A DNA stretch of 64,000 nt from a virus. The notes beneath the pieces were generated by a model, which had not been told where the DNA came from, ran no database searches, and was given only the letters and a program-made list of their open reading frames with translations. The translations under genes were made by a program, and so were the position numbers. Location of the stretch: the IMG/VR virus record IMGVR_UViG_3300025849_000009; one strand, given 5' to 3'. Each line of letters opens with the position of its first letter. Positions within the stretch are counted from its first letter, which is position 1. Below are positions 1 through 63,605 of the stretch, piece after piece.

Positions 1-189
1 AGAAGAAGTACCTGTTTGAACTTTAATAGATTCTAAAGTTTCAGGTATTCCTTTTATTAGCTTAATAAAATCTTTTAGGCTATCTGCAGAGCCTGCCCAA
101 TCAGATTCTATTTTTTTGCCGTTAATAGTAGAATATGAATATTCTATTTTCTCGTTAACGTATTGTTTAAATAACTTTACATGTTTCAT
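1..189 (-). CDS. Partial CDS (runs off window edge), putative head-packaged protein with capsid-targeting-like N-terminus
   Basis: Manual translation from ATG at 189: MKHVKLFKQYVNEKIEYSYSTINGKKIESDWAGSADSLKDFIKLIKGIPETLESIKVQTGTSS, open to position 1; starts 1 nt after the stop of the upstream gene; not in ORF track. Confidence 0.8.
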   Translation of the reverse strand, partial: MKHVKLFKQYVNEKIEYSYSTINGKKIESDWAGSADSLKDFIKLIKGIPETLESIKVQTGTSS

Positions 190-190
190 T

Positions 191-1279
191 TTAGTGATTG
201 TTCATTATATCTATTAAATTATTAGCTGTTCCATTATTAAAAGAATAACTTGAGTTTGTTAATCCAATTGTACTATAATTAGTACCTGATGAATAGTCAA
301 ACATAACACCGCCGTCTGATGAATTATATTCATCTAGTACAAACATTAATTCATAAATTTCTTGAAACATTTTATCTTTAATTTTTGAATCAATTCCACT
401 ACCACATGTGACTGCAATTAAAAACGTTCTTCTACCACCTGGGTTAAAGTTTGATCTGCCTTGAATTTGTCCACCAACAGTAGATCTCATTGTTCCAGAC
501 CATCCGCCTGCTGCAGGGACTGAAGATTCCTCAGTTTCATATTTTTTATATTTCTTAATAACTTTAGAAATAGCTTCTGCTAGTTTTACAGCGTTTCTGC
601 CCTGAAAAATGTCGTAAGAATCTTTTGCAGTATCACCTTGTACCATTAATGGTTCTTTATAACTTGGTAATTTACCTGATTTTAAAGTAGATTCAACAGC
701 GTTTAAAATCCCACTGTATGAATCTCCCCATTTTTCTACTGCTATTTTAGCAAGCCTAAGCTTGTCTTCTAATTTAGCTTTAATTCCTTTTTTACCAAAA
801 GACACTGCCTCGTTTACAAATGCTTCGAATAATTTTACGTGTTTAAGTTTATGCGTATTTTGAATTTTAGATTCATTTATATCCATACCGTCCCAATCCC
901 ATTTGTAATGTTTACCATCAGCAGCAGTACCTAGATAACCATACATTCCTTTTTTAAAGCCATCAAAGAAAATGGCAGCACCATACTCTCCAAGTTCATC
1001 TTGAACATACTCTCTTGCACCGGCTTCATCAAATTCTTCTACAAAAACACCACCTTCTTCAAAGAAGAATAAAATTCCAGATCTTGTGTTAATTGAATCA
1101 CCCTCAAACCATGCGTCATTATCCTCGTCGTATGAATCTCCTTCATCATCTGGATCACCATACATGTCGAAACCCGACCATTGAGATATACCATATGCTA
1201 GTGCTTCTTTTTCTGTCTTAAAGAAATTCATTTGAGCATAATCTCCAGATCTTTCTCTTACGTAAAATATTTTTGCCAT
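191..1279 (-). CDS. Two-module hypothetical protein, putative internal head protein
   Basis: N-terminal domain paralogous to that of 1304..3253; internal DINES..KLKHVKLFEAFVNE motif separates a second domain. Confidence 0.6.
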   Translation of the reverse strand: MAKIFYVRERSGDYAQMNFFKTEKEALAYGISQWSGFDMYGDPDDEGDSYDEDNDAWFEGDSINTRSGILFFFEEGGVFVEEFDEAGAREYVQDELGEYGAAIFFDGFKKGMYGYLGTAADGKHYKWDWDGMDINESKIQNTHKLKHVKLFEAFVNEAVSFGKKGIKAKLEDKLRLAKIAVEKWGDSYSGILNAVESTLKSGKLPSYKEPLMVQGDTAKDSYDIFQGRNAVKLAEAISKVIKKYKKYETEESSVPAAGGWSGTMRSTVGGQIQGRSNFNPGGRRTFLIAVTCGSGIDSKIKDKMFQEIYELMFVLDEYNSSDGGVMFDYSSGTNYSTIGLTNSSYSFNNGTANNLIDIMNNH

Positions 1280-1303
1280 CGTGTTATTATTTTTGTTTGT
1301 TAA

Positions 1304-3253
1304 TTACCACGCGTAATCAAATGTTTTGATTTTATTAATTCTATCCTTGATATTCTTAGCATAGTTTTTAGTTTCTCTTTCGTACCAGCTTTCAGCTGCT
1401 CCATATCTTTCTTTAGATTCTTCGCCCTGTCTAACATAATCACAATATCTAGAATAGTCATCTAATATATTTGACATATGATTAGAAGCATCTCTTAATT
1501 TAACAACAGATCCTCTTTTGTTTGTTCCAATCATGATTTCACCATATTTGGTTTTCTCACCTTTTTTTAATCCATTTTGAATTTGTGCAGTTAATTCATC
1601 AATTGCATCTGAGACCATTTTATCTAGTGGCAATTTAGCCGCGTTGTTAGCTAAAATAGTTTCGTATCTTTTCTTATTTTCAGATTTAAAATCATCATGT
1701 GATTTAAATGCTGTAGCTCCTGATTTTGCTGCTGCTCTATCTGCTCTTTTATTTGCAGTTGAATACTTTTGTTGTAATAAATCAACGTTGATAACAATAG
1801 CTCTATCTGCAACTTCTGCAATTCTCTTTACATTGTAGAGTCCAGTTGCATCCCATCCTTTGTATTTTTTACCAATACCTATAGAATCTGTTGGATTATT
1901 ATCTACTGCTTTAAGGTTTCTATCTTTGTTTTTTCCACGGAATCGACTAGTCGATGACCAAACTTGATCATAGAATTTATTACCACCAGAAGTAACAGCT
2001 AATAAATAACCTCCACCTGGGATAGTTTTATTACTTACATATGCATCATAAGGTGCATGTGGATTTTCTTTTTCATTGTCTGAAATATAAAAAATAATAG
2101 AATTTGATTGTTTTGCTTTATATGCAGTTTGTGGGTCTGTAGTAATAAGATCTTCATCTTGTACTTTGTCTAATGCTACTTTAGTAGAACCATAAAATGC
2201 GCTTGCTAAATGTTTGTCTAATTTACCAGATTTTCCTCTAAATAATTCAGCAAGTCTTTGTGAACCGAATGCTTCATTAACTGTTGATTCGTTTAAAGAG
2301 TTAACAAACTCGCTAAATGATTCGTAAATAAATGTTGTTTTGTTTTTTGGTGTTTCCATTTTTATATTTGATGTATTTTCTTTTACTAATTTTGGATTTT
2401 TATTCAAAAGCTCTTCCATGTCTATTTCAGTTAATGACATAAAACTATTTTCTCCATACTTTTTAGATAATCTATCTGCTTTTTTAATGTCTATTACTTT
2501 AGATAAATCGTCATAATCTAAAGTTGCTACTCCAAATTCTCCAAACATTTCTTCCGCCATTGCGTTTGCAACTTTAAAAGGAGTTGCCTTCTCGTTAAGT
2601 GTAACCGCTGTTGATGGAATGATTGATTTTAATATTCTCATACCTGTTTTAGAAAGAGAGATACCATCTTCACTTACGTTAAAATACGCTGTGTTTCTTC
2701 TTAACCATCTTGTAGAATCAGTTGTCATTTCTTTAACAATACTTTTAAATTCTTCTTGGGAAATTTTACCATCTTTAACAGCTTCTAATACTTTATTTCT
2801 AATTTTAGCAGCTTTACCAACAGATTTTGCTGGATGGTTTTCAGTATACTTTCTTTTAACAATTATATTTCTTTCTTCTATAGATTCATTAACCTCACCA
2901 TCTTCAAATTTCCAGGTGTAACCTTTACCTTCTGCACCCTTTTTACTTAAAATCCCATACATACCTTTTTTAAAACTATCAAAGAAAAGGGCAGAATCAG
3001 CTTCTTTTTTTGTATATTTTCTTGCCTCTTTATCGCTATTATGCCCCTGGATGTATGCTCCGTCTTGCCATGTTAGTAAAATGCCAGTGATAGCGAAATC
3101 TCCTTCCCATCGTATATCTTTAACTCGGGCCCATTCCATTTCAAAGTCTGAAAATTGAGATTTGCCATATTTTAATGCTTCTTCTTTTGTTTTAAAGAAA
3201 TTGAACTGCTCACTATCTTTAGTTTTTTTACTTACGTAGTATATCTTTGCCAT
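1304..3253 (-). CDS. Multi-module hypothetical protein, putative internal head polyprotein
   Basis: 649 aa; segments delimited by EVNESIEE, TLNE, LVKE, and an internal FIYESFSEFVNSLNESTVNE motif. Confidence 0.6.
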   Translation of the reverse strand: MAKIYYVSKKTKDSEQFNFFKTKEEALKYGKSQFSDFEMEWARVKDIRWEGDFAITGILLTWQDGAYIQGHNSDKEARKYTKKEADSALFFDSFKKGMYGILSKKGAEGKGYTWKFEDGEVNESIEERNIIVKRKYTENHPAKSVGKAAKIRNKVLEAVKDGKISQEEFKSIVKEMTTDSTRWLRRNTAYFNVSEDGISLSKTGMRILKSIIPSTAVTLNEKATPFKVANAMAEEMFGEFGVATLDYDDLSKVIDIKKADRLSKKYGENSFMSLTEIDMEELLNKNPKLVKENTSNIKMETPKNKTTFIYESFSEFVNSLNESTVNEAFGSQRLAELFRGKSGKLDKHLASAFYGSTKVALDKVQDEDLITTDPQTAYKAKQSNSIIFYISDNEKENPHAPYDAYVSNKTIPGGGYLLAVTSGGNKFYDQVWSSTSRFRGKNKDRNLKAVDNNPTDSIGIGKKYKGWDATGLYNVKRIAEVADRAIVINVDLLQQKYSTANKRADRAAAKSGATAFKSHDDFKSENKKRYETILANNAAKLPLDKMVSDAIDELTAQIQNGLKKGEKTKYGEIMIGTNKRGSVVKLRDASNHMSNILDDYSRYCDYVRQGEESKERYGAAESWYERETKNYAKNIKDRINKIKTFDYAW

Positions 3254-3278: not shown

Positions 3279-5126
3279 CTATATATTCTTAATAAATTGA
3301 TCGAATGTTAGTGTTGCTATTTCAGTCTCTTCTAAAACTCCCATAGAATCTTCTAATTTAGATTTTAATTCATTATACATATCATGTATCGGTTTTGGTG
3401 TTAGCTTCTTAAATAGCTTCTCATCACCATCTAACATTGCATTTCTTACTTGTGTTGCTGATATATTCTTGCCAGTTCTTGGTATTTCATAAAGTCCAAA
3501 ATCAGTTCTAACTCCAAGATCTTCTCTATATTCTGGTTTATCTACTTGAAATCCATAAGTTTTCATTCTGTCACTTCCGGTTCCCCATAACACTGGTTCG
3601 TATTTTGGCCTCATTGCATTAAACATAGTGTCAATACCGCCCGTTGGAATTACAAAAACTTCTTCAATTGGATATTTAGATTTTAATCTATTAATCATTG
3701 CAACTTGAGTGTCCTCATCATAAGGTCTTTTAAATGCATCTTCTTTTTTCTTTTTCTTAGCCTTTACTAATAAGATTACGACCGGGTGACCATTTTGTTT
3801 ATGAATAGTTTCAACTACTTTAGCATGGCCCAACGTAAAAGGCTGAAATCTACCAACAAACATATTAACTAATTTCTTACCATGTTCTGGGTAATCTACC
3901 TTTAATGCTTCTAAAACAGGAGATTCATTATATTGTAATTTTTGATTTAACAGATATGACTTAAAATTAAGAACATCATTTTCATTTGTTTTTGCCATTA
4001 CTATTGCATCTATACTATCAACTATTTCATTGATCTGCGACATTAAATCTTTATTAATAATATCTGTTTCTTTGTTTCTCTTTTTTCTAAAACTACCCAA
4101 TGCTATTTTATACAATTCTGATAAAATGTCATTCTGTATTAATGATAGTGTTTTTTCATTTGTAATAAAAACTGGATTTAATTTAAAACTTTTGTTTTCT
4201 GAAAAATCCGCAGAATTAAAACTAGCTCCTACATATTTAGAAGCATTCTTTTCAATGTATGCATTAAAGATGTGTGAAATTAATTCAATGTATCGTTCTG
4301 CTGAATCTTCTGATTCTAAAGAAATTTCTTCAAGATTAAACTCTGTAATATACTCTACTAAATCTAATATTGCAATCTGATACATGTCAGATGGCTCTCT
4401 TTTTTTGGCATCCTTCCTGTCAAATCTTTCAAGTTTAAAACTTTTTTGATTTTTACCTTCATAGAAGTTTACTATTAAACCATCTATATCATTATCTAAA
4501 TTAGAATTTAACGTTGGATTATTAAGACCTATGTTAAATATATTAAATATAGCTCTTGTAAAAGATTGATCTTTGAATTTGATTTTAAAATCAGAATCAG
4601 AAAGTTCTAGTAATCTAATTAAGTCATCTTTTTGATTTGATTGTAAAACTCCTTGAAATATAACCGGAGGTTTTTGAACACCTAATAATTCTGACCACTT
4701 ATTTAAGACCTGTGGATCTCTAATAACTTTTTTGATTTGTGTGGGATTTTTAGGATTTAATATTTGTATATGTGTTAGTATTAAGTGATTTTTAGGAAGA
4801 CTTTCATATTCGATATCTACTGTCTTATTGTCAATCATGTAGTCAAATCCGAATTTCCAATCATGTGGCATATCTTCTTTTACATCTTTAGGAATAGCTT
4901 TAAAGTAATTGATACCATTTTCATAGTATCTTACCATAGTTCTATCTACTTTATCCATTTTATGTTTAGAACCACTTTTAAAATATTCATAACCAGTACT
5001 AGTGCTTTTAACATGAAACGAAGATGCTTGTATTTTTTCTGATACAACACATGTTAATTTCAACATTGAATTAAAATCATTAATGTTGGTTGATTGAAAA
5101 TATGTTCTTAAATTTTGTAATGCCAT
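3279..5126 (-). CDS. Degenerate RNA-ligase-fold domain fused to HIGH-superfamily (cytidylyltransferase/NMNAT-like) nucleotidyltransferase
   Basis: C-terminal GRFQPFTLGH, GSDR and ISATQVR motifs; N-terminal EKIQA, LGVQKPPVIFQG, DGLIV and SFKL resemble covalent nucleotidyltransferase motifs I/IV/V. Confidence 0.7.
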   Translation of the reverse strand: MALQNLRTYFQSTNINDFNSMLKLTCVVSEKIQASSFHVKSTSTGYEYFKSGSKHKMDKVDRTMVRYYENGINYFKAIPKDVKEDMPHDWKFGFDYMIDNKTVDIEYESLPKNHLILTHIQILNPKNPTQIKKVIRDPQVLNKWSELLGVQKPPVIFQGVLQSNQKDDLIRLLELSDSDFKIKFKDQSFTRAIFNIFNIGLNNPTLNSNLDNDIDGLIVNFYEGKNQKSFKLERFDRKDAKKREPSDMYQIAILDLVEYITEFNLEEISLESEDSAERYIELISHIFNAYIEKNASKYVGASFNSADFSENKSFKLNPVFITNEKTLSLIQNDILSELYKIALGSFRKKRNKETDIINKDLMSQINEIVDSIDAIVMAKTNENDVLNFKSYLLNQKLQYNESPVLEALKVDYPEHGKKLVNMFVGRFQPFTLGHAKVVETIHKQNGHPVVILLVKAKKKKKEDAFKRPYDEDTQVAMINRLKSKYPIEEVFVIPTGGIDTMFNAMRPKYEPVLWGTGSDRMKTYGFQVDKPEYREDLGVRTDFGLYEIPRTGKNISATQVRNAMLDGDEKLFKKLTPKPIHDMYNELKSKLEDSMGVLEETEIATLTFDQFIKNI

Positions 5127-6409
5127 TATCTTCCGTATTTTATGATACCCATTAATTGATTAATGGCTGCAAACGTACCTGTTAATTTCATTGTTTTTCC
5201 TTTGTACACAAAAACTATTCCTTCAGTTGGTATAATAGATTCTATTCCTCCAATTCTGTCTAACCTAGCAAGTTCAGCTTCAACCTTTGCGATCTGAGCT
5301 GCACCTCCTGTTTTCTTAATACCTTCAGCTTCTGTTCTTATTTGATCGTGCAACCTTTGCATTTCAGCATCTGGGTTTGCTGCAACAAAATTAGAAGCAT
5401 TCTTAAGGATAATAGAACCCAATTCTAAGAATAAATCCTCAAATGGTCTAATGTTTTCCTTGTATTTTTTCTTAACATCTTCTTTATCAAATTTCTTAAT
5501 AAGAGATGCTTTATCTTTACCTAAATCTTTGTCTAATGATCTTAAGTTTAGTGTCTTTTTATCACCATACGCCCATCTTAAAAGAAGTCCTTCTTTATGA
5601 TCTTGTTCTAAATCAGAAAAGTTTGTATCAATAGTTTCTCTCCACCACATTTCGTGATATCTTGAAACTTGATCATCATCTGATAAACCATAACGATCTC
5701 TTAGTGATTCTACTTGTTTGATAAATTTAGCTTTGTTCTTTTCAAAATCTAAATCTTTTCCTATTTTAATAACTTGAGGTGGAATTACTGTAAATGTTTT
5801 GCCAACATTAATTTTAAGATCTTGCATTGCTTTAGCGATTGATCTTGCTGGTTTGTTATCATCTCCAATAGTATTACCTTCACCGTCAGTTTTCTTTATA
5901 CCATGAAATTGAATAACATCACGATCATAATAGATTACATTAGGATTCTTAGAGTAAATTAACTCCATATTCATAAAGTTTTTACCATTATCAAAAACTT
6001 CTAAATCTTTAGGGGATAATTTATTTAACGAGCTTGCTAAATCTTCTGCAGCAAATTGAAAAGTATCTTGTACTAATGGACTAGCATGTCCTTCAAACTT
6101 ATTCTTAAAAGTAGCAAGGTCCATTGGATTTGCTAATTCAGTTTTATTTCTGGCAAATTTTACTTCTCCATCTTGAACTGTTGCAAATACATTTTGACCG
6201 TCAGTTTTTTCAGTTGCTTCTTCTTCGAAGTTTAGTTCACCATATAATCCTGCTTCAATAATTTTCTTAAAATCACTAAATGTTAAATCTTTCTCATCAA
6301 ATGGATGTGACATGTGACCTGCTGCACCACCTTCTAAAATAAGAGATTCTGGTACACTAATATGTAGTCGTTCAGTTATAAATTCATTAAAATTAGTAAA
6401 GATCTTCAT
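5126..6409 (-). CDS. ATP-dependent ligase-fold protein (DUF6267-like), putative head-packaged
   Basis: EGGAAGHMSHPFD, TEKTDGQN (motif I KxDG), EGIVF (motif IV), MKLTG (motif V); N-terminal MKIFTNFNEFITE. Confidence 0.65.
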   Translation of the reverse strand: MKIFTNFNEFITERLHISVPESLILEGGAAGHMSHPFDEKDLTFSDFKKIIEAGLYGELNFEEEATEKTDGQNVFATVQDGEVKFARNKTELANPMDLATFKNKFEGHASPLVQDTFQFAAEDLASSLNKLSPKDLEVFDNGKNFMNMELIYSKNPNVIYYDRDVIQFHGIKKTDGEGNTIGDDNKPARSIAKAMQDLKINVGKTFTVIPPQVIKIGKDLDFEKNKAKFIKQVESLRDRYGLSDDDQVSRYHEMWWRETIDTNFSDLEQDHKEGLLLRWAYGDKKTLNLRSLDKDLGKDKASLIKKFDKEDVKKKYKENIRPFEDLFLELGSIILKNASNFVAANPDAEMQRLHDQIRTEAEGIKKTGGAAQIAKVEAELARLDRIGGIESIIPTEGIVFVYKGKTMKLTGTFAAINQLMGIIKYGR

Positions 6410-6429: not shown

Positions 6430-8538
6430 TTATTGTCCCAATGAGCTAGTTAACATACCAACTGCAGTACCATAATCTCCATCTGCTTTAGATAAAATAC
6501 CGTCTATAACTTTTTTAGCTTTGGTTTTGTCAAAATCCTCTCCAAATGCTTTTTGCAAAACAGTTATCGCATATTCTTCAAATTCTTCATCCGAATTAAC
6601 TTCTGATTCAGTAACTACTGATTCAAAGTAATCTTCATAATCAGAAACTGAATCCGGACCCCATACATCAGCTAAGACCTTTTCAATATCTTTTCTTTTA
6701 CCAGTTAATTTAACTTCAGGGTAACCATGGTCTCCTTCTTCTTTTTCAACTTCCATTTCAACCCTGTTCTTCTTTAAAGATTGAACTAAAGGTTTGAATT
6801 TAGTTGGGTGGATGCCATCGTCGTTTCCAAATTCTATACCTGAAAGAGAGGCTTCAGTAACTACTGATTCATTGTATAAATGAACATAGTTTTTATTTTT
6901 CTCAGAATAAACTGATTTGATTTCAAATTCTTTTTGTCCTTTTGTATAATATGCTTTAAAGAATAAATTTTCATCAAACTCTCCAAAGAAATGATCTGAT
7001 TTACCGATAAAGAATTCAGCGTTTGGATAAATTTCAAGAACCTCTTCTTTTGTAGTTGCCTTTAAAACCGCGTTATCAAAGTCTTTTACGAATTTAGCTT
7101 CTGTGACTGATTCACTTAATGAATTTCTTAGACCACAGTGTGTACATTCTACTGTTCCATCTTTATCAATTTGCTTATATAGGTGTCCTTTTCTATTAGT
7201 ACACTTAGGTTCGTCTGATTCAGTAACTACTGATTCTTCAATAGTAGCCTCATTATAACTTACAATATCAGAATATTCAATTTCATGTTCTTCTCCGTCT
7301 TGGTCCAATGCAAATATTGTTTTATCTCCCCACATGTCATCATTACTATCGTTGCCATTACCATATGCATAAATAACATACTCTTGTCCGTTTCCTAATT
7401 GAATCATACCATCATCAGCTTTCATAGCTTTCATTAAAGACTTTTTATTATATGATTTCTCATTAAGCGCATCTCCTTCGTCATATGCAAATGACTCAAA
7501 CATATTAAATGCATTTAGTAAAGCTTGACCTGATGCTTCTTCTTTAATACTCTCTAAATAAAGAGCAGTACCTTCAACAATCCCAATTCCTGACCAACCA
7601 GCTGCATTTGCAAGATCACTATAGTGTTTGTCTAAAATTCTTTTTGTAGTAGTAGCACCGATTGTTAAAAAGTGATTACCTAAACCTGCTACTTTTAATT
7701 CAAATGAACCTATTCTACCTTTAATGTTCTTAGATATAACTTTTTCTCTATGAAAGTTAGCATCTGTCATTGCTTCTTCGAAAAGATACTTAATACAACC
7801 TAATGTGCCTACTTTATCCATTGCACCAAAATCTGTTAGTTTCTTAGTAAATAAATTTTTATAGACGGTTAAAACTTTTTTTGCATCTCTTTTATATTGA
7901 ACTGAAATAGCTTCATTTACTGAAGTAGTTAAAGATTCAAATGCTGGATAAACATCATCATATCCTTTACCGTAAATATCTGCCATTAACCATTCTTTAT
8001 TAGCTTCATCCCATAAATATACAAATTCGGCACCGCCATCATTTGCAACATCTCTTAAATATTTAGATATATTGGCAACTTTACCTTTAGATGCTGTAAA
8101 GTTTCCATAATAATTCATCCCTGTTGGATCAGCTTCTAAACCTGAATTATCTCCATTTTTAAGAACAATGTTTAGCGGTGAGCCACCCTTTAAATATGTT
8201 TTCTTAATAAGCGGTAACACGTTTTCAGGATATGAATCATAATGCATGTATACAGAAGTGATATTTCCTCTTTTGTCAATTTTACCAATTTGTCCTCTAG
8301 TTCCTTCTTCGATTAAAACAACAGCTTCATTAATCTCAGCTCCTCTTAATTTAGTAAAAAACTCAATTCTTTGCTCTTCGGTTAATTCTTTGATAGAAGT
8401 AACTTTAAATTCACTAAGTAAATTTTTATACGTTTCTGCTTCAGTAGTTCTTTTAGTAGAATTTTCTTCTTCTATTTGCCTAGATCTATTGATTTGCGAT
8501 TCAGTTGAAAACTGATCAAAAGATTTTAATTTATGCAT
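6430..8538 (-). CDS. Modular polyprotein-like internal head protein
   Basis: N-terminal MHKLKSFDQFSTE; repeated ESVVTE/ESVTE/VNE/LNE linkers; contains a GTR...YxHYDSYP phage domain and a C-x5-H...CxxC Zn-ribbon-like module. Confidence 0.6.
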   Translation of the reverse strand: MHKLKSFDQFSTESQINRSRQIEEENSTKRTTEAETYKNLLSEFKVTSIKELTEEQRIEFFTKLRGAEINEAVVLIEEGTRGQIGKIDKRGNITSVYMHYDSYPENVLPLIKKTYLKGGSPLNIVLKNGDNSGLEADPTGMNYYGNFTASKGKVANISKYLRDVANDGGAEFVYLWDEANKEWLMADIYGKGYDDVYPAFESLTTSVNEAISVQYKRDAKKVLTVYKNLFTKKLTDFGAMDKVGTLGCIKYLFEEAMTDANFHREKVISKNIKGRIGSFELKVAGLGNHFLTIGATTTKRILDKHYSDLANAAGWSGIGIVEGTALYLESIKEEASGQALLNAFNMFESFAYDEGDALNEKSYNKKSLMKAMKADDGMIQLGNGQEYVIYAYGNGNDSNDDMWGDKTIFALDQDGEEHEIEYSDIVSYNEATIEESVVTESDEPKCTNRKGHLYKQIDKDGTVECTHCGLRNSLSESVTEAKFVKDFDNAVLKATTKEEVLEIYPNAEFFIGKSDHFFGEFDENLFFKAYYTKGQKEFEIKSVYSEKNKNYVHLYNESVVTEASLSGIEFGNDDGIHPTKFKPLVQSLKKNRVEMEVEKEEGDHGYPEVKLTGKRKDIEKVLADVWGPDSVSDYEDYFESVVTESEVNSDEEFEEYAITVLQKAFGEDFDKTKAKKVIDGILSKADGDYGTAVGMLTSSLGQ
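6607..7236 (-). repeat. Three identical dispersed 18-nt repeats TTCAGTAACTACTGATTC (encode ESVVTE on minus strand)
   Basis: Exact copies at 6607-6624, 6853-6870 and 7219-7236. Confidence 0.9.
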
Positions 8539-8571
8539 AATGATATTATTTTTTTATGTGTTATTATTTTA

Positions 8572-10529: not shown

Positions 10530-10751
10530 TTAAAATAATGATTTCTTGTTAGGATTTGGTTTAATAAATTTTGATGTTATTTGCCTCTTCTTAAATTTAG
10601 GTTTTGGCATTTCCATTTCTGGAGAATTGACACTAAGATCTAATGGCTTGAAATCTATCAAAAGTTTCATACCCTTAAATCTATCACTGTCTTTTTGGAA
10701 CTCATCAAAGTTATCCTCAACCATGTCGTTAATCGTTTCTATACATACCAT
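10530..10751 (-). CDS. Small hypothetical protein
   Basis: 73 aa ORF filling the gap between primase and uvsY on the coding strand. Confidence 0.55.
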   Translation of the reverse strand: MVCIETINDMVEDNFDEFQKDSDRFKGMKLLIDFKPLDLSVNSPEMEMPKPKFKKRQITSKFIKPNPNKKSLF

Positions 10752-52401: not shown

Positions 52402-52422
52402 AAATATGAATTTCTTTTTTTA

Positions 52423-54994: not shown

Positions 54995-55885
54995 TTAGTT
55001 ACCTCTTCTGTTGTTAGACCCGCTGCTTCTAGTTGTTGATCTAGAATTATTTGTAGGTCGTGTACTGTTGTTATATACAGGCCTTGTGTTATTGTTTCTA
55101 ATTACAGGCCTTGTATTATTGTTTCTAATAACTGGCACTCTCGGCTTCTCTCTAATAACTGGCACTCTCGGTTTCTCTCTAATAACTCTAGGCTTAGTAT
55201 TATTAACCGGGGTATTTTGATTCAGATACACTCTAGGTTTTGTATTAGTTCTAGTGTTATTAGTATTGGTTCTAGTTGTTCTAACTCTTCTATTACTAAC
55301 TACTTCATTACTAATTGAACCTCTTCTACCATTAACATTTACAGTATTTGATCTATATCTGTTTTGCCATGCATAGTTATTCATTTGGTTTCTCCAACCC
55401 CAGTTATTGTAATATCCATTCCAACCGTAATAGTTATTCCATCCATAACCATATCCATAACCCCAGTACACATTGCCCATCCAGTTATTATATCCCCATC
55501 TATCATATCCAAATGGTGACCATCTATGTGGTGTGAAACCCCATGCCCAGTCATTCCACATTCGATCTCTATCCCAGTAATTGTAATAGCTATAACCCCA
55601 GTTATTTCTATTCCAGTTATATCTAGTACCTAATAGACGATTGTTCCAATCAAATGATCTAGGTTGGCTTAATGCGTATCGAGCAAAATCCAATCTAAAA
55701 TTAAAATCTGTTCTTAATCTATTTCTAAATTGAAATTCACTTAAAGTATCAATCTTCACATCGTCTGCTACCACTATATAATTTTCATCATCATATATTG
55801 GATCGTGATTAAGCGTAGATAATTGCCAACTAGCTCCACAAGATGATAACATAATTAACGAGATAATTGCAAATAGTTTTTTCAT
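54995..55885 (-). CDS. Lipoprotein with W/G/Y/N-rich and R/N/T-rich low-complexity regions
   Basis: Signal peptide MKKLFAIISLIMLSS-C lipobox; DPIY motif; repeats PRVPVIREK and PVIRNNNTR. Confidence 0.75.
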   Translation of the reverse strand: MKKLFAIISLIMLSSCGASWQLSTLNHDPIYDDENYIVVADDVKIDTLSEFQFRNRLRTDFNFRLDFARYALSQPRSFDWNNRLLGTRYNWNRNNWGYSYYNYWDRDRMWNDWAWGFTPHRWSPFGYDRWGYNNWMGNVYWGYGYGYGWNNYYGWNGYYNNWGWRNQMNNYAWQNRYRSNTVNVNGRRGSISNEVVSNRRVRTTRTNTNNTRTNTKPRVYLNQNTPVNNTKPRVIREKPRVPVIREKPRVPVIRNNNTRPVIRNNNTRPVYNNSTRPTNNSRSTTRSSGSNNRRGN

Positions 55886-55896
55886 AATAATAGATT

Positions 55897-57627
55897 TTAT
55901 TTTATAGTCTTAACCCTCTCTGTGAAACTTGGAGGAAAGAACCCTGGTTTATATATCAAACTCCTGAAGCACGCATCCAAAACATATGTCACTGCCCAGT
56001 CATTCTCATTTCTTACAGACCTTCCAACACCTTGCATAATACTGATTCCAGTTTTCCAATCATACCACTCATTTGACGTTTGCATTTTAGCTTTAATTAA
56101 AGGATCACCTAATGATGGGTATGGAACTTTAAAGAATATTTGAAATCTACTAATATCATCTTTTAAATCTAAACCTTCTAATAAAGACGGTCCCATTAAT
56201 ACGGCACCCTCTTTCTTTTTAAATAAATCTAACATTACCGATTTCTCTTTGGAGTTTTCATAATCCATGAGTCTAAATGTATGTTTAGAATTTTGTTTTA
56301 TAAAATTAGTAAATGCATAAGATCCAGTGTGTATAACGCCACGCTGACCTTTATGTTTAGATATAATCTGATCTAAGATTTCTACAACTTTAGGTAAACT
56401 TTTTTCTCTTTCTCTAAAAGAAAGTTTATGTCTATTAACAAATACAATAGGAGATTTATCATAATTAAACACATTGTCCATTCTGATAAACTTAGCATTC
56501 TTAATTCCCATTATTTTAATAAATGCTTTAGGATCTCCAATAGTTGCACTCATAAAAACTTTAAAGTCAGCCTTCTCGTGCAAATATTTGTTAATCATTA
56601 AACTTTCTTCTACACACATGAATTTTGCTTCATGTTCATTTTGATCTAAAACCATTTTATCGATTCCAACTTCTTTGATTAAACTCAAATAATCTTCAAC
56701 TTTACAATGAACGTCCTTAAGTCTATCAAAATGTCCAAATGAAGTTTGCCAATCTTTTGGTACTCCAGTATTTCCATATCTTCTCTTAGCTAATTTATTA
56801 GCAACCTTTCTAACTTTACCAAAACCATGCAATATTCTTTCAAATTCACTCATGGCCGAAAACACGTCATGTTTATCTCCAGACATCATTTCATTTACGA
56901 GATGTTGTATTTTATTTTTTGTGTATGTGGCTTCTTGAAATCCTTGTCTACTTGCAAATCTATTTAAAGTTACCATTTTATCTACAATAGTCTGATCTAT
57001 TCTAGGACTAAAATGACTTTGAACTATATCATCAACTCTATGTGCTTCGTCAAAGAAAACAAAATCACGTTGTTCAAATGGGATTGTTCTTTCTTCTTGT
57101 TCCATTTTGGCTTCAACATAATTTCTTTGAATTAACCAAAAAGAATAATTTAATAATGAGACTGGTTGATCTATTGCTCGCCGCCTATTCTGAAGGTATT
57201 CACATGATCCATAACATGACAAAGATTCTGCTTGTTCATATCCCATTCCTTTTAGTTTGCAATCTCCGAGTGAAAATGGCAAACCATTAACGGAGCATTC
57301 ATAATTATCAACACCCTTAATTGATGGCCATCGTAATCCATATTTATAAAAGTCAGACTCATACTGATCTTGGAGACTCAGGTCGCTAGTAACCATATAA
57401 CCTCTATTACCAAGTTCTTTTAATACATGTGCTGACCACATCGCTATAAGTGATTTACCAGCACCAGTGGGTGCGTCAATAACTAATGTTGATTTTGGAT
57501 CTTCTAAATATGTTTCACATATCTTAGTAACAATTTCTCTTTGTCCTTTTCTAAATGTAAAGGATTTTCCAAATACATTTTCGTCTAATGTTTTTTGAAT
57601 AATTTGATCTATAGATCGTTCCAACAT
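55897..57627 (-). CDS. dinG: DinG/XPD-family helicase
   Basis: FRKGQ, DAPTGAGKS, four-Cys cluster, FFDEAH, MSATI, EGLD, KVPYPSL, QGVGRSVR, LDACF. Confidence 0.9.
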   Translation of the reverse strand: MLERSIDQIIQKTLDENVFGKSFTFRKGQREIVTKICETYLEDPKSTLVIDAPTGAGKSLIAMWSAHVLKELGNRGYMVTSDLSLQDQYESDFYKYGLRWPSIKGVDNYECSVNGLPFSLGDCKLKGMGYEQAESLSCYGSCEYLQNRRRAIDQPVSLLNYSFWLIQRNYVEAKMEQEERTIPFEQRDFVFFDEAHRVDDIVQSHFSPRIDQTIVDKMVTLNRFASRQGFQEATYTKNKIQHLVNEMMSGDKHDVFSAMSEFERILHGFGKVRKVANKLAKRRYGNTGVPKDWQTSFGHFDRLKDVHCKVEDYLSLIKEVGIDKMVLDQNEHEAKFMCVEESLMINKYLHEKADFKVFMSATIGDPKAFIKIMGIKNAKFIRMDNVFNYDKSPIVFVNRHKLSFREREKSLPKVVEILDQIISKHKGQRGVIHTGSYAFTNFIKQNSKHTFRLMDYENSKEKSVMLDLFKKKEGAVLMGPSLLEGLDLKDDISRFQIFFKVPYPSLGDPLIKAKMQTSNEWYDWKTGISIMQGVGRSVRNENDWAVTYVLDACFRSLIYKPGFFPPSFTERVKTIK

Positions 57628-58115
57628 ATAACTTCATTTACTTCGATACCAGCTTTCCTTAATAATTCTACTCCACCCATATCTCTATAGTCTTCTGAAT
57701 AAAATACTCGCTTAATACCTGATTGAATAATTAATTTTGCACAGTCAAAACATGGACATGTAGTCACGTACATGTCTGCTCCTTCAGAAGAAAGAGTAGA
57801 TTTACTGATTTTTGCCAAAGCATTTGATTCTGCATGTAATACTTCTCGTTTAGTTACCTCTTTGGAACAACACACACCTTCGCATTCATATCCTTTTTCA
57901 ATTAGTATCTGCATGTGGTCAGGATTATCTACATACCTGATTTGTTCCTCTTCACAATCATTATCAAAGTCATATGGCGTACCGTTATAACCTGTTGATA
58001 TAATCTGAGTATCTTTTACAATAATACATCCAACGCGCCTACGTTTAGCGTAAGATAATTTGGCTATTTGATAAGCCATTTGCATGTATATTAATTCTAC
58101 TGGAATTCTAGGCAT
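57609..58115 (-). CDS. cd: dCMP deaminase
   Basis: VGCIIV, STGYNGTP, HAESNA, PCFDC; likely start MPRIP at 58115 because ATG 58142 lies inside a promoter/terminator hairpin. Confidence 0.93.
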   Translation of the reverse strand: MPRIPVELIYMQMAYQIAKLSYAKRRRVGCIIVKDTQIISTGYNGTPYDFDNDCEEEQIRYVDNPDHMQILIEKGYECEGVCCSKEVTKREVLHAESNALAKISKSTLSSEGADMYVTTCPCFDCAKLIIQSGIKRVFYSEDYRDMGGVELLRKAGIEVNEVICWNDL

Positions 58116-58127
58116 ATTGTCTCTTAA

Positions 58128-58162
58128 ATAAAAAGGGTCCATGTATTATACATGAACCCTTT
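58128..58162 (-). terminator. Intrinsic terminator overlapping a promoter -10
   Basis: Minus strand AAAGGGTTCATGTA-TAA-TACATGGACCCTTTTT; 14-bp stem with one G.U, then U tract. Confidence 0.75.
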
Positions 58163-58189: not shown

Positions 58190-58696
58190 TTATTTTGCTT
58201 CGTACATTTCTTTAAGCTCATCAATCTTTTTATTGTAAGCTTCTTTGATACCGTTTAGACATGCTTCGTACATTTCTTTAGTAAGTCCTTCTCCATGTAT
58301 CTCAGCGTTCGCATCTTCTGCTGACTGAGCAACTAATGTTGCAGCTAATGCTGCGTTTTCTTTAAGGTAAGACTCAACTGTGTGGTCAGGATAGTCATCT
58401 CCTTCATAGTCACATGCTTCTTTGACAGCACACTCATATGCTTCTGTCATCATTTCTGAAACTGCCTTTACAACCTCTTCCTCTTTTTCAACTTCTTCAG
58501 CCTCTTCAACGTCTTCAGTTTCTTCTTCAGTTTCAGTTTCTTCTTCAGTTTCTTTTTCGTCTTCGCCCTCTTTTTCTACTTCGATTTCATAATCTCCGTC
58601 TACTTTAATTTCGATTTCGTCTTCAGCTAACTTATCTGTATCCGCTAGATTTTTATTAGCAGCATACTCTTCGAATGATAATATTTTTTTGTCCAT
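58190..58696 (-). CDS. Highly acidic protein, putative prohead core/internal protein
   Basis: MDKKILSFEEY start; Glu-rich ETEEETETEEETE; late motif at 58716-58723. Confidence 0.6.
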   Translation of the reverse strand: MDKKILSFEEYAANKNLADTDKLAEDEIEIKVDGDYEIEVEKEGEDEKETEEETETEEETEDVEEAEEVEKEEEVVKAVSEMMTEAYECAVKEACDYEGDDYPDHTVESYLKENAALAATLVAQSAEDANAEIHGEGLTKEMYEACLNGIKEAYNKKIDELKEMYEAK

Positions 58697-58731
58697 GTTA
58701 TGTTGTTATTTTTATTATATATCTTAGTATA

Positions 58732-59214
58732 TTATAGTGTTTCTATTTTATTGTTTTTCATCCAAGTTGATAATTCACTTTCTGCTCTATCAAAAAGTCT
58801 ATTTCTGTTAATACTTAATCCAAAATTATTAAAGTATTCTTTCATTAAATAGTATGCAGGTTCTACTGATTCTCCATTAGCAACCATATCACTCACATGT
58901 TTTGAAACTTCATATGCATAATACGCGGCTTTTTCTGCCATAGGGTTTGTCATTGCATTATAAAAATCTCCACCGTAAAATTTACCTACAGTTTCTCCAA
59001 ACTTTTGTTTCATTTCTATCCATGAAATCCCTTCTAATCCAATCCATAATTTAGCTTGGACCGCCTTAGTGTCTTTTCTAATAAAACCTTCTTTTGCCAT
59101 ACCCTTAGTTATCTCTAGGATTTTCTTAGGAATTGGTAATTTGCCATTATCTTTTTCCCATGCTTTGATTTCTTTATCATTTACAAATGATTCAAATAAT
59201 TTTATGTATTTCAT
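58732..59214 (-). CDS. Hypothetical protein with capsid-targeting-like N-terminus
   Basis: MKYIKLFESFVND. Confidence 0.65.
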   Translation of the reverse strand: MKYIKLFESFVNDKEIKAWEKDNGKLPIPKKILEITKGMAKEGFIRKDTKAVQAKLWIGLEGISWIEMKQKFGETVGKFYGGDFYNAMTNPMAEKAAYYAYEVSKHVSDMVANGESVEPAYYLMKEYFNNFGLSINRNRLFDRAESELSTWMKNNKIETL

Positions 59215-59220: not shown

Positions 59221-59907
59221 TTATGCCTTAGACCTTTTTTTTACTGTTTTGAGTTTCGCCTTTAGGGCTAATTGGTTTTTTTGAACAGCTATTTTCATGC
59301 CATCAACAGAAGTTTGTTGCATTTTTGATTTTAATAATGCAGTTTCTATTTTATCAGCAGGTTCTTTTGATTTATCTTTAGATTTTTTATTTATCAGTTC
59401 AACAAAATCTTTGTTCTTCTTAGATAAACCTTTTTGTTTTTTAGTAAGATCTTTTATTTTTTGTTTATCGCTTTTTGGTTTACTCTTCTTTTTCTCTAGA
59501 ATAAATTTATCTAAAGATAAAACGTTAACCATTTCTTCAACTTTACCCATCTTTTTTGATAGTTCCATTGCCCAATCAACTCCTTCGTCTCCGCCCCATA
59601 TTAACCAAGAAACATAACCTTTATCTTTCCATGGAGTTTCTTTTAATTCGGGCTTAATAGATGAATTTTTTCTATGTCTATTAAATGAAGCCATACGCTT
59701 TACTGTATCACCAGATATGTTTTCACCTTTAGCTAATTGATGTGCTCTTGCCCAACCAACTGCAGTTCCAGCATCCACTTCTTCACGACCATGTTTTTCT
59801 TTCCAATCGATAGCCATTTGAGCATTTTTCTTTGCTGCTTCTGGATAATCGTTGTAAGTATCATCATCTCTGACTTCAGATTCTAAAAACAATTTAATAT
59901 ACTTCAT
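59221..59907 (-). CDS. Conserved-looking phage protein with capsid-targeting-like N-terminus and Lys-rich tail
   Basis: MKYIKLFLESE; YNDYP...GTAVGWARAHQLA...TVKRMASF..RH...GYVSWLIWGG; second motif VLSLDKFILE before the basic tail. Confidence 0.65.
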   Translation of the reverse strand: MKYIKLFLESEVRDDDTYNDYPEAAKKNAQMAIDWKEKHGREEVDAGTAVGWARAHQLAKGENISGDTVKRMASFNRHRKNSSIKPELKETPWKDKGYVSWLIWGGDEGVDWAMELSKKMGKVEEMVNVLSLDKFILEKKKSKPKSDKQKIKDLTKKQKGLSKKNKDFVELINKKSKDKSKEPADKIETALLKSKMQQTSVDGMKIAVQKNQLALKAKLKTVKKRSKA

Positions 59908-59910
59908 GTA

Positions 59911-62439
59911 TTATATATTGTTATTTCTATGTGATTGATCAAAGTGATTCTGTTCCTTTAGCTCTTTATCATGTCCTTCGTCTCTAACTTCTTTAGCAAC
60001 ATCTTTGTCAGCATCTCCCCAAGTTCCTTTACCTTTTGTTAAAAATGCATTTACTCGAGCGTATCCCCATTGTTGTTCAGTTGCACCCGGCCTATGACCA
60101 GTTTTCCATGCCGCCATTCCTCTTCTCATAATAATTCTAATAATTCCAATTGGTACACCGGTTTCTTCTGATTTTGTCTTAAGTGCTTTTTCAATTTTAG
60201 GATCACTGATTGGACCTCTATCACCTTCAACCTTTTCTAAAATATCACATTCTGCTAATTCTTCTTGAGCAAACTCATTATATTCTTTAGCCCACGCTTT
60301 CCATTTAGATGGTCTAGCATAATCAGATAAAATCATATCGATAGCATCTGGTTGAGAAATCTGAGAATTAATATCATTCCATACTTTATCTGCTAACCAT
60401 CTACCAGCTTTTGCGTTTAAATAAGATAGGGCTCCAGCGTCTGAGAATTTCCAACTCTTAGTTAGTATTCCCCACACATCGTTCCATATTTCTTCAATCT
60501 CATAAGAGTCCATATGAACATCTAAAGTTCCCCAAAATCCATACATTTGATTGATGTCATCTGTATTATATTGTAACTTTTTGCCGAATTTAAAATTAGG
60601 CACTCTACTTTCTGTAATTAAATCTTCATTTAATGTTTTTAATAAAGAATTAAAAAATCTAGGTGATAAAGACTCTACGAATCCTCTTTCTTCAGCATCG
60701 TTCTGTATCCACTCTTTGTCTTTAGAAGAAAGCTTTTCATAATCTTTATTAAATCTATGATGCGATATTAAATCATAGATATCTTCTAAATTATAATTAC
60801 CTTCATTGGCCTTTCTCATGTCGATCCAAACTCTAATAATATCTGCATAATCTTTGGCAGTTAATTTAGTTTTATTTCCATGAGTTGTTCTATCATTAAG
60901 ATCGAACATCTGCTTAGCAAACTTATCGATATTACCTGATTTAAAATATAACGTAGCTCTTTGTCTTCCATTATCTAATAATTCAAAAGTTTCTTCTTTT
61001 TCATCATGTGGATCTAATCTCCAACCAGCTGAATGATTAACTCTAATATCTAAACCACTAGAATTACTATCAACAACTACAGTCCAATGACCAGAAGACT
61101 GATATGTTTTTCCTTTAGCATACTTGATTTTCTCTTCGTTAACTAATGATTCATATACTAAATATCCATTAGATCTAGCAAAAACATTAGACTCATCGTT
61201 CCACTGTTCTTTAGTACTACTTATTGAAATTTGTATATAATTCTTTGCACCTAAATCTGGCTGTATAAGAAAAACTAAATCATCACTACCAACATAAAGA
61301 TCCCAATTTCTACCTGATTTTTGAGTTAGTAATAATTGAAAATTAGAATCTAATTCCTTTTTAAGTTCTCTTGTATTTGGAAAGCTTCCACGACCCGTAG
61401 AAAAACCATCTCTGTATTCTAGTTCATCTCCAAAAGAAAGTTGATCTACGAATTTTTGTAATCTTTCTTCTTCATCATTCTCAAAATAAAACTCATTAAC
61501 TACTGATTCAACACTAGTTGCTTCATTGGCAGATTCTAAAATAATAGAATTTAGTCTTACTTCTTTTTGAAATCTACCACTACGTACATCGTCAGTTACT
61601 TCTAACTTAACACCATACATTGCTGTTAATTTTACTTTTACTTTTTTACCATTATGTTCCGCTTCAAATTCTTTAAATGCATTTGCTTGTCGACCATAAT
61701 CTGTAATTTCATATTCTCCATCTTCTGTATCAAATATAGTACCTATGCTAAGTTTCCTAAGAATCTTTGCACCCATCATTGATATTTTAGAAGAAGATAT
61801 GGTTTTTCTTTCAGTAACTAATGATTCTAATATCTTTGAATTTTTATCTATTGAAAAAATAGTTTCTTTTTTTCTTATAATAGAAATTCCCTTGAATGTC
61901 GATTTGTTAAAATATTTGTTACTTCTGTTCTCATATCTTTTTAATGAAGAGTGATCTGCAAACACACCGCCTGGAATGTTGTATATGATAGTTCCCTTTG
62001 GTAACACTATATTTGTATAATTGCCAATTTGAACACCTTCAACATCTTTTTTTAATTCATATTTTCTATTATCTAAATTATATGTACCTCCACTCATAGT
62101 GCCTGAGTTTGGTCTAAATGTTGCTTCATCTAGCGACTCGTCTTTTTTATCACCATATAATTCATGATATTTCTTTACATGTTTAGATGTTTTAACTTCA
62201 CCCTTTTCTCTAGCTTCCTTATCACCTGGCATTTCTTTATATGCGCTGGAATCATCGTCAGCCATGTCTGATTGTTTTTTTATCTGATCTTTTTTATCTT
62301 CAATCTCATTATCGTCTAACCCTCTATGATATGGTTTTGGACCTGGTTTTGCTTCTGACAAATAATATGCGGTATACTCTTCTCTTGTCATGTTTAGTTT
62401 TGCAGCTTGCACTCCTAGGAAATCGTTAAAATTGCTCAT
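59911..62439 (-). CDS. Modular polyprotein-like internal head protein with DUF5824-like terminal domains
   Basis: Likely start MSNFNDFL at 62439; linkers ESLDE, ESLVTE, ESVVNE, ESLVNE, LNEDLITE; C-terminal RRGMAAWKTGHRPGATEQQWGYARVNAF. Confidence 0.65.
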   Translation of the reverse strand: MSNFNDFLGVQAAKLNMTREEYTAYYLSEAKPGPKPYHRGLDDNEIEDKKDQIKKQSDMADDDSSAYKEMPGDKEAREKGEVKTSKHVKKYHELYGDKKDESLDEATFRPNSGTMSGGTYNLDNRKYELKKDVEGVQIGNYTNIVLPKGTIIYNIPGGVFADHSSLKRYENRSNKYFNKSTFKGISIIRKKETIFSIDKNSKILESLVTERKTISSSKISMMGAKILRKLSIGTIFDTEDGEYEITDYGRQANAFKEFEAEHNGKKVKVKLTAMYGVKLEVTDDVRSGRFQKEVRLNSIILESANEATSVESVVNEFYFENDEEERLQKFVDQLSFGDELEYRDGFSTGRGSFPNTRELKKELDSNFQLLLTQKSGRNWDLYVGSDDLVFLIQPDLGAKNYIQISISSTKEQWNDESNVFARSNGYLVYESLVNEEKIKYAKGKTYQSSGHWTVVVDSNSSGLDIRVNHSAGWRLDPHDEKEETFELLDNGRQRATLYFKSGNIDKFAKQMFDLNDRTTHGNKTKLTAKDYADIIRVWIDMRKANEGNYNLEDIYDLISHHRFNKDYEKLSSKDKEWIQNDAEERGFVESLSPRFFNSLLKTLNEDLITESRVPNFKFGKKLQYNTDDINQMYGFWGTLDVHMDSYEIEEIWNDVWGILTKSWKFSDAGALSYLNAKAGRWLADKVWNDINSQISQPDAIDMILSDYARPSKWKAWAKEYNEFAQEELAECDILEKVEGDRGPISDPKIEKALKTKSEETGVPIGIIRIIMRRGMAAWKTGHRPGATEQQWGYARVNAFLTKGKGTWGDADKDVAKEVRDEGHDKELKEQNHFDQSHRNNNI

Positions 62440-62449
62440 GTTGTTTTTA

Positions 62450-62905
62450 TTATTTTGGTAATCTAACCATAGTATCTTTAGTTTGGCTCTTATCCGTATT
62501 CTTGACAAAATCAAAGTTTTTATAAAACTTATTTAATCTAGAAATAGAAGTTGCTCCAAAATCTTTAGAAGGTGTTAGATATATTTTTAAATTTTGTGTG
62601 TCAGCATAGTCAGTAATTCTTGACATAACCTTAGAACCGATCCCTTTATCACGATCCTCTTTTTTTACTTTTATTTTACTAAGTTGTAGGTACTTACCAT
62701 TATCATATAAATCTAATTCTATATTGAATTGATCTTCTAATTCTTGTAAGATGAATTGTTCTCCTAAAATAGGTGTATTATCATGATTACATTTATGACA
62801 AATAAACACATCGTGTCCACCCTCTTCTATTTCCCAAGACCAACCACAGTTATCACAAGATACTTTGTTTGCCGTAAACTCCTCGAATAGTTTTATATAT
62901 TTCAT
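62450..62905 (-). CDS. Zn-ribbon plus GNAT acetyltransferase, capsid-targeting-like N-terminus
   Basis: MKYIKLFEEF; CDNC...CHKC; acetyl-CoA motif RDKGIGS; FYKNFDF. Confidence 0.8.
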   Translation of the reverse strand: MKYIKLFEEFTANKVSCDNCGWSWEIEEGGHDVFICHKCNHDNTPILGEQFILQELEDQFNIELDLYDNGKYLQLSKIKVKKEDRDKGIGSKVMSRITDYADTQNLKIYLTPSKDFGATSISRLNKFYKNFDFVKNTDKSQTKDTMVRLPK

Positions 62906-62906
62906 A

Positions 62907-63605
62907 TTAAAATTTCGGTATACCTCCTATTTTTGCTGCTCTTCGTCTCCAGAGATCTAATACTTGTTCTCTTTCTTCGTCATTAATAACACCTTGTTCC
63001 TGTTGTGTATCTAAATATCTACCAACAGTATCGCTCATGTTTTCCTTTCTCTTCTTAGCTTCATATCTTAATCCTTGTAAATTAGCATCCACTTCTTTAG
63101 GTAGCATTAGATACTGAGATTTTGGTAAAAGTCCCATTTTTATATAGGCTCTTAGTTCACTATCATCTTCATTAGGTTTACCTTTTCTATAATTTCCGGT
63201 GTCAATTCCGTCTTGTGTAATATGTTCCATTTCATGACGAACTACATCTGCTAAATGAAAATATACCATTGACCATTCTCCTGGAATCCACTCAGGATTT
63301 AAAGCAAAGTCTATAATAATATAAGGTGTTTGAAAGTCACCGTGATCATCATCGTCTCTACCATCTGCACCTGTTGAATCTAATACTTGAAATCCTTCAT
63401 ATTTTTTATCAATATGAATAGTAGCCTCAATATCAAATTCTAAACCTCTCTCTTCAATTTGGTCTCCATAATTTATAGTAGCGTTCCCGCCTTTATATGA
63501 TTTAACCCATTTATTGAATATAGCTTTAGTTAATTTGGAAGCTAATCCATCATATGCAGATCTTCCTTCACCAATAAAACTTTCATATGTTCTAATATGT
63601 TTCAT
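62907..63605 (-). CDS. Putative zincin metallopeptidase, capsid-targeting-like N-terminus
   Basis: MKHIRTYESFIGE; HEMEH plus downstream EVDA third-ligand motif. Confidence 0.7.
   Translation of the reverse strand: MKHIRTYESFIGEGRSAYDGLASKLTKAIFNKWVKSYKGGNATINYGDQIEERGLEFDIEATIHIDKKYEGFQVLDSTGADGRDDDDHGDFQTPYIIIDFALNPEWIPGEWSMVYFHLADVVRHEMEHITQDGIDTGNYRKGKPNEDDSELRAYIKMGLLPKSQYLMLPKEVDANLQGLRYEAKKRKENMSDTVGRYLDTQQEQGVINDEEREQVLDLWRRRAAKIGGIPKF

Follow-up and report, generated by a model that had tools for sequence, protein, structure and literature searches.

The 64,000-nucleotide stretch of DNA analysed here (hereafter the window), from the IMG/VR virus record IMGVR_UViG_3300025849_000009, encodes a series of otherwise unrelated proteins that carry a common short peptide, mostly at the N-terminus, which resembles the capsid-targeting sequence of phage T4 and is here called the tag. 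We consider it probable, on good indirect evidence, that the tag set represents an expanded T4-type capsid-targeting and processing system. As the tag is borne by some ten unrelated proteins and recurs between modules in two chain proteins, the phage probably carries a large, swappable protein payload along with its DNA. Docking of the tagged proteins, their cutting, their retention in the virion, their injection and any role as effectors are inferences from sequence. That unrelated proteins of T-even phages have only a capsid-targeting sequence in common is already in print; the differences here lie in scale, in the apparently enzymatic cargo, in the presence of internal and C-terminal copies, and in the shuffled polyproteins joined by linkers, a feature absent from the sequence-only reading of this DNA that our analysis followed up. 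Full-text literature searches turned up no paper that describes comparably large sets of such tags in giant or uncultured phages.

All 52 credible genes of the window lie on the minus strand, and its GC content is about 31%. A structural protein of 1238 amino acids (aa) places the phage among giant phages of Bacteroidota, the top match being the uncultured 462-kb phage LR756500 (37% identity), followed by the Tenacibaculum phages PTm1, PTm5 and pT24, by PAU, by Chryseobacterium and Flavobacterium phages and by Lak phages. The window is syntenic with 265-337 kb of LR756500. Closer relatives are the IMG/VR contigs G002-G004, with about 91% DNA identity, and the 212-kb contig G005, with about 72%, and from CheckV estimates the genome would be close to 275 kb in size.

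The tag and its likeness to the T4 signal

The genes that carry a tag, or a weak or internal form of it, are the following (open reading frame, ORF; nucleotides, nt; scores in bits are from the matrix described below):

1-189, minus strand: 3'-truncated ORF, 63 aa seen, start MKHVKLFKQYVNE, tag at nt 151-189 (7.4 bits)
191-1279, minus strand: 362-aa protein, internal tag LKHVKLFEAFVNE at residues 146-158, nt 806-844 (17.3 bits)
1304-3253, minus strand: 649-aa protein, internal tag/linker FIYESFSEFVNSLNESTVNE at residues 308-327, nt 2273-2332
3279-5126, minus strand: 615-aa two-part protein, degenerate ligase-like half and HIGH-type nucleotidyltransferase half (PHROG cytidyltransferase matches)
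5126-6409, minus strand: 427-aa RNA-ligase-like protein, tag MKIFTNFNEFITE at nt 6371-6409, second site ESLILE/GG at residues 21-28
6430-8538, minus strand: 702-aa candidate cargo polyprotein, tag MHKLKSFDQFSTE, about seven modules
13782-14150, minus strand: 122-aa protein, tag MKTFNTYLIE at nt 14121-14150, acidic middle, C-terminal glycine zipper
58190-58696, minus strand: 168-aa very acidic protein, weak shifted tag MDKKILSFEEY
58732-59214, minus strand: 160-aa protein, tag MKYIKLFESFVND, Asp replacing Glu (22.8 bits)
59221-59907, minus strand: 228-aa protein, start MKYIKLFLESE (first half of the tag), phrog_2859 domain
59911-62439, minus strand: 842-aa candidate cargo polyprotein, weak start MSNFNDFL, C-terminal DUF5824 (Pfam E 3.5e-15)
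62450-62905, minus strand: 151-aa zinc-ribbon and GNAT-like protein, tag MKYIKLFEEFTAN, without Glu (13.5 bits)
62907-63605, minus strand: 232-aa HExxH protein, tag MKHIRTYESFIGE at nt 63567-63605 (16.3 bits)

The usual tag is 13 residues long and follows the pattern M-[KH]-x-[IVL]-x-x-[FY]-x-x-[FY]-[IVL]-x-[ED] at seven N-termini, of which the one starting at 59907 keeps just the first half and the other six (starts 189, 6409, 8538, 59214, 62905 and 63605) are clear. The gene starting at 14150 has instead a 10-residue tag in the T4 register, MKTFNTYLIE, whose T4 counterpart is MKTYQEFIAE, while the starts at 58696 (shifted by one and lacking the Glu) and 62439 are weak. All ten N-termini quoted in the sequence-only reading are true minus-strand ORF starts, and the internal copies it reported are present in 191-1279, 1304-3253 and 3279-5126; its figure of about 13 tagged proteins stands if weak and internal cases are included, the firm count being eight N-terminal tags plus three internal ones.

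Tagging is well above chance. The strict pattern [FYW]xx[FYW][IVLMST]x[END] occurs within the first 10 start positions of 7 of the 52 ORFs, as against 0.6 expected from its internal frequency (binomial P 2e-6), with one chance match among the seven (43795-45594). Strict N-terminal matches are concentrated in proteins other than structural or replication proteins (7/20 versus 1/32, Fisher P 0.0035), and no baseplate or replication protein of the window has a true tag, which confirms what had been said of these gene starts. A scoring matrix trained solely on the tags of LR756500 and applied to the N-termini of the window gives the seven 13-register tags 22.8, 16.3, 13.5, 7.4, 2.5, 1.5 and -4.3 bits and all remaining N-termini -13 bits or less, so that two groups are separated by a gap; the single strong internal site that it finds is residues 146-158 of 191-1279. 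With the tags stripped, BLASTP finds no similarity among the tagged proteins save for an N-terminal domain common to 191-1279 and 1304-3253, and the description of the set as mutually unrelated holds with that exception. In favour of a set that arose by chance, or from one diverged paralogous family, AT-rich genomes have many MK- starts, and two tags among those quoted are weak; but the binomial probability, the bimodal scores, the lack of similarity past the tag and the clearly distinct motif sets render this explanation extremely improbable. Paralogy in particular is rejected on the BLASTP result.

The positions that are conserved are those that matter in T4. Mutagenesis of the T4 sequence assigns residues 4 and 7 to targeting and residues 8 and 10 to processing, and Asp at position 10 blocks cutting while leaving loading unaffected (review, PMC9026906). 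In the family of the HExxH protein (62907-63605) the tag is retained in 115 of 120 homologues, and in these 115 (57-98% identical) position 7 is [YF] in 114, position 10 is F in 113, position 11 is [ILV] in 113 and position 13 is E in all, whereas the positions between them vary freely and position 14 is Gly or Ser. Positions 7, 10, 11 and 13 correspond to the targeting residues (4 and 7) and the processing residues (8 and 10) of T4, which bears out the proposed likeness to the published T4 sequence. The information content of the alignment drops to background directly past position 13, and in the AlphaFold model of 62907-63605 residues 1-14 have a pLDDT below 50, the rest averaging 88. The RNA-ligase-like family (5126-6409) keeps the same conserved block with a tag length of 12-14 residues across the listed homologues, and has a second conserved site, LILE/GG, about 13 residues past the tag. 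Among 49 tags picked irrespective of the processing positions, 34 have [LIV] and 30 have E there. As a control, the tag pattern recovers T4 ipII and ipIII. In T4 itself the hypothetical 54-aa protein gp61.1 (NC_000866 18966-19130), which adjoins the primase gene, begins MKTFKEFIKE, a start like a capsid-targeting sequence.

The likeness to the T4 system thus extends to an N-terminal propeptide of 10-19 residues with aromatics three residues apart followed by I/L-x-Glu, to its presence on otherwise unrelated, fast-changing proteins, and, for MKTFNTYLIE, to T4's own length. The usual tag here is three residues longer, and tagged genes are more numerous: the 64-kb window has about ten, LR756500 has 26 and G005 has 12 strict matches, as against three or four in T4. 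The cargo looks enzymatic where that of T4 is small and basic, some copies of the tag lie within a protein or at its C-terminus, and the polyprotein linkers appear to reuse its processing half.

The tag is present in several other phages of this group. LR756500 has 26 tagged ORFs, 22 of which fit a strict DNA-level pattern that has no match in a reversed control, LR756502 has six, and G005 has 12 strict-pattern matches against 2.9 expected; a scan of PTm1, PAU, MaF61, MA9V-1 and Lak-B1 found none tagged. Of the window's tagged genes, just two (5126-6409 and 13782-14150) have a tagged orthologue in LR756500, and the others are lineage-specific. In the tagged-gene arrays of LR756500 (11.7-15.9 kb, 197.8-199.5 kb and about 323 kb) the preceding ORFs end in a common C-terminal peptide, ADDFGF[FL]DN, so the array proteins have a conserved tail as well as a conserved N-terminal tag.

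LR756500 also contains five radical-SAM matches, which raises the alternative that the tag is a leader for a dedicated modifying enzyme, for instance a radical-SAM maturase, rather than a capsid signal. However, these genes lie at 50, 386, 410-413 and 447 kb and the tag arrays elsewhere (11-16, 197-201, 264-269 and 313-332 kb), no radical-SAM gene is present in G003 or G004 (88-kb and 65-kb contigs with tagged genes), and the tag fits the T4 pattern position by position; we regard a modifying leader as very improbable. The specific case of a radical-SAM leader is unsupported, as no such enzyme is near the tagged genes.

Protein chains joined by a processing-like linker

Two of the tagged proteins, encoded by 6430-8538 and 59911-62439, consist of modules strung together by the linkers ESVVTE, ESLVTE, ESVVNE and ESLVNE. 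In sequence the linker is similar to the latter half of the tag (cf. YESFIGE and FESFVND), and the general form ES-x-[VIL]-x-E is observed 14 times against 1.4 in shuffled sequences, 10 of the 14 being in tagged or island proteins; it is enriched also in G005 and not in LR756500. In 6430-8538 linkers of the ESVVTE type stand at residues 435, 557 and 639, with variants at 200-210 and 474-481, and in 59911-62439 the linkers are ESLVTE (205), ESVVNE (311) and ESLVNE (430). Comparison of 6430-8538 with G003 and G004 shows modules inserted, deleted or replaced with breakpoints precisely at the linkers, and comparison of 59911-62439 with G002, G003 and G004 shows modules replaced or inserted precisely there. 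These differences arise between contigs that are about 91% identical, and the replacements are unrelated modules. Both DUF5824 (59911-62439) and the phrog_2859 domain (59221-59907) occur as cargo modules.

A related arrangement is seen in 3279-5126, in which an internal tag and linker, FKSYLLN ... ESPVLE (residues 388-406, nt 3909-3965), stands between the two halves and is retained in the G005 and G003 orthologues. An aromatic-pair motif is also present at its extreme C-terminus (window 3282-3311; TFDQFIKNI, with TFEQFVKKD in G005), a position that precludes the role of a removable leader, and this copy may be a non-cleaved docking motif.

The three ESVVTE linkers of 6430-8538 are identical 18-mers at the DNA level, and therefore may double as recombination junctions. 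Together with the exchange of modules precisely at these points, and with the frequency of AT-rich codons after ATG in AT-rich genomes, this would fit a view in which gene starts and linkers are kept mainly as DNA, either as translation-start contexts or as junctions for cassette recombination, and the peptide has no function. Yet synonymous codons vary freely at the conserved residues of the LR756500 tags, and two families fix [FY], [FY], [ILV] and E while other positions, and even the length of the tag, change, both of which argue for selection on the peptide. We judge the DNA-level view distinctly unlikely, and a DNA motif as the sole cause of the tag is ruled out by the synonymous variation. 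For the linkers such a view is compatible with capsid targeting and processing, and may contribute there.

Protease, capsid genes and a promoter-like motif

Protease and capsid genes of T4 type are found in relatives of the window. PTm1, PAU and LR756500 each encode a Peptidase_S77 protein, of the family of the T4 protease gp21, and a gp23-type capsid protein. Peptidase_S77 was also found in five long relative contigs, which are all the long contigs with a homologue of the tagged HExxH protein; in G005 the protease gene is 147160-149622, with the protease domain in about the first 190 residues of the product. The proteases of G005 and LR756500 are fused to a long coiled-coil or acidic tail and are encoded, as in T4, between the portal and capsid genes. 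His85 and Ser140 of the T4 enzyme are invariant in the four aligned proteases, and the protease domain ends in RVNE/S or RVNE/A where T4 has EITE/S; V-N-E is also the commonest ending of both tags and linkers. No protease was found in G001-G004, no head genes in the window or in its 88-kb near-relative, and none in the 25 kb by which G003 extends past window position 64000. The sequence-only reading had called for a gp21-like protease to be located elsewhere in the genome; one was located in the genomes and contigs of relatives and not in the window or the 88-kb contig.

The tagged genes share with structural genes a promoter-like motif, GATATATAWWA, with 10 sites in the window where 1.1 would be expected. 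Every site is on the coding strand and in front of genes, four before tagged genes or blocks, five before structural genes and none before replication genes:

8570-8580, minus strand: promoter-like motif GATATATAATA upstream of the 6430-8538 cargo block
14152-14162, minus strand: promoter-like motif before 13782-14150
58713-58723, minus strand: promoter-like motif before 58190-58696
63607-63617, minus strand: promoter-like motif before 62907-63605
59909-59917, minus strand: near-motif TATATAATA before 59221-59907
19200-19210, 20678-20688, 28702-28712, 43774-43784 and 52420-52430, minus strand: promoter-like motif before tail-fibre or baseplate-block genes
13011-13021, minus strand: further promoter-like motif

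In G005 the same motif precedes portal, protease, capsid, tail and tagged cargo genes, and in LR756500 the core ATATATAA precedes the same classes of gene.

On this basis the following course can be proposed. Through the aromatic pair [FY]-x-x-[FY], a protein made late would attach to the scaffolding core of the assembling prohead, and [IVL]-x-Glu would be the cut site of the gp21-type prohead protease, freeing the mature protein within the head. Where a tag ends in Asp or Asn (58732-59214 and 62450-62905), the protein would be loaded and left uncut. With the processing motif ES-x-V-[TN]-E joining unrelated modules in two genes, one tag could load several proteins, which the protease would then separate, and the near-identical DNA of the linkers would serve as a junction for module swaps among related phages. 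The cargo, including the RNA-ligase-like enzyme, the nucleotidyltransferase fusion and the HExxH, GNAT-like and glycine-zipper proteins, would leave the head with the DNA. More tentatively, and with rather less than even confidence, we suggest that the head-protease site has become a standard connector, so that proteins flanked by ES-x-V-[TN]-E recombine into tagged chains, are loaded into the capsid and are released by the protease, yielding a plug-and-play injected library that includes RNA-repair-type enzymes.

Several points weigh against a targeting and processing system. Three tags of the window lack the Glu, having Asp (58732-59214), Asn (62450-62905) or neither (58190-58696), and two of those quoted are weak. 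The protease is seen in relatives only, the closest long one having about 72% DNA identity, and head genes are missing from both the window and the 88-kb contig. In an alignment of the relatives' capsid proteins with T4 gp23, no Glu falls opposite the T4 maturation site LTE/A. PTm1 and PAU, both in culture, encode the protease but lack the tag, which is therefore neither general to the clade nor checkable in a cultured phage. Because the ESVVTE linkers of 6430-8538 are identical in DNA, recent recombination, and not selection for a protease site, could account for their conservation. The GATATATAWWA motif is a putative late promoter, assigned by association.

The tagged proteins might also enter the prohead and be processed as parts of its assembly, that is, as core or scaffold accessories or internal head proteins, to be degraded or retained rather than injected as effectors. 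The majority of T4 core proteins are cleaved by gp21 and then expelled, and two ORFs of G005 have tag-like starts: a small ORF (146729-147097, MKVIKTIEAFAKE) that lies between the portal and protease genes, the place of the core proteins in T4, and an ORF after the capsid gene (151308-152288, MMKLNKRIKLYEEF). Both are likely head-core proteins. The product of 58190-58696, moreover, is extremely acidic, as are scaffold-derived peptides. Much of the cargo, however, looks enzymatic (KxDG ligase-like, HIGH nucleotidyltransferase, HExxH and GNAT-like), and most cargo genes differ among relatives, which would be unexpected of assembly parts. This account is a live alternative for some tagged proteins, and as an explanation of the set we consider it unlikely.

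Candidate cargo, neighbouring genes and comparison with known systems

Pfam and PHROG searches left the tagged proteins mostly without matches, and the cargo classes named in the sequence-only reading were upheld to different degrees. A HIGH-type nucleotidyltransferase is supported by the PHROG matches of 3279-5126. For the ligase fold (5126-6409) K68, D70 and G71 of KxDG are invariant in 29 sequences, and the top structural matches of residues 69-212 are ligase nucleotidyltransferase domains (5cot, Z 6.1; 6imk, 5.8; 6rce, 5.7; 9r3w, 5.6), though these are weak, in a range of Z 5.0-6.1 with a model pLDDT of just 66, and neither a Pfam search nor a sequence search of the PDB gave a match. The family has 1829 homologues in public data, many of Tara Oceans origin and one on a contig of 173 kb, and its tag is retained in the G005 and LR756500 orthologues. 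What had been called a metallopeptidase (62907-63605) has invariant H124, E125 and H128, and this designation is based on HExxH: Foldseek with the model returned nothing at E <= 0.001, and full-length VIA-align gave M1 aminopeptidases and an HExxH domain at Z of only 4.2-4.7, with no convincing fold. GNAT families are matched by 62450-62905 only below the Pfam cut-offs, and the same applies to the glycine zipper of 13782-14150, the proposed membrane peptide, which has orthologues in LR756500 and G005. The G003 copy of the acidic protein 58190-58696 has a 62-aa insertion.

The protein encoded by 191-1279 consists of an N-terminal domain of about 140 aa, the internal tag and a C-terminal part, and its N-terminal domain is found again in 1304-3253 (BLASTP E 8e-22). 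The common region, the first 130 or so residues, reads MAKI[FY]YV...FNFFKT.EEAL.YG and lies upstream of the internal tag; no family match was found for this domain. Two independent IMG/VR contigs, G003 and G004, break off at the same point within the first cargo island, near window position 1296, which suggests a hypervariable region that assemblers fail to bridge.

The structural and replication genes among which the tagged genes lie include the following, assigned by PHROG:

38028-39857, minus strand: gp6-like baseplate gene
39875-40231, minus strand: gp25-like baseplate gene
45597-46313, minus strand: gp5-hub-like baseplate gene
8572-10080 and 55897-57627, minus strand: helicases
10739-11818, minus strand: primase
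11802-12722, minus strand: SSB
13131-13781, minus strand: RuvC-like gene
57609-58142, minus strand: dCMP deaminase

The 296-aa product of 54995-55885 begins MKKLFAIISLIMLSSCGA, resembling a lipoprotein signal peptide.

Beyond the gp21-type protease, gp23-type capsid protein and head-gene order that relatives of the window share with T4, the proposed system has counterparts in other large phages. In phiKZ, 201phi2-1 and SPN3US a gp21-related protease (gp175, gp245) cleaves numerous head proteins behind a Glu residue, the DNA is packaged together with large amounts of protein, and a single propeptide may contain more than one site; but these propeptides are long and dissimilar, the site is [S/A/G]-x-E and there is no common short address tag (PMC10052503, PMC5694885). 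The lineage of the window is, moreover, a separate clade from these phages, related to PAU, PTm1 and LR756500. The polyvalent proteins (Iyer et al. 2017, PMC5512222) are likewise long and multi-modular, with shuffled effector-type domains, and are presumed to be packaged into capsids and delivered along with the DNA; they are defined, however, by particular domains and in-built peptidase domains, in contrast to the standard six-residue linker found here behind a T4-type tag, which fits the site expected of the head protease.

If the tag works as in T4, its presence alone would identify which proteins of a very abundant marine lineage, as yet uncultured, are packaged and probably injected. It would then be possible to list from sequence the candidate first-strike proteins of genomes that cannot be cultured, including enzymes of unassigned role, and the linker-joined chains would show how such payloads are shuffled in nature. 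As the T4 tag is already in use for loading foreign proteins into capsids, a second, diverged tag and a linker format for multiple cargoes are of practical laboratory interest. Should the protease site indeed act as a standard connector, these phages would hold a population-level library of injected proteins, with turnover between genomes that are about 91% identical.

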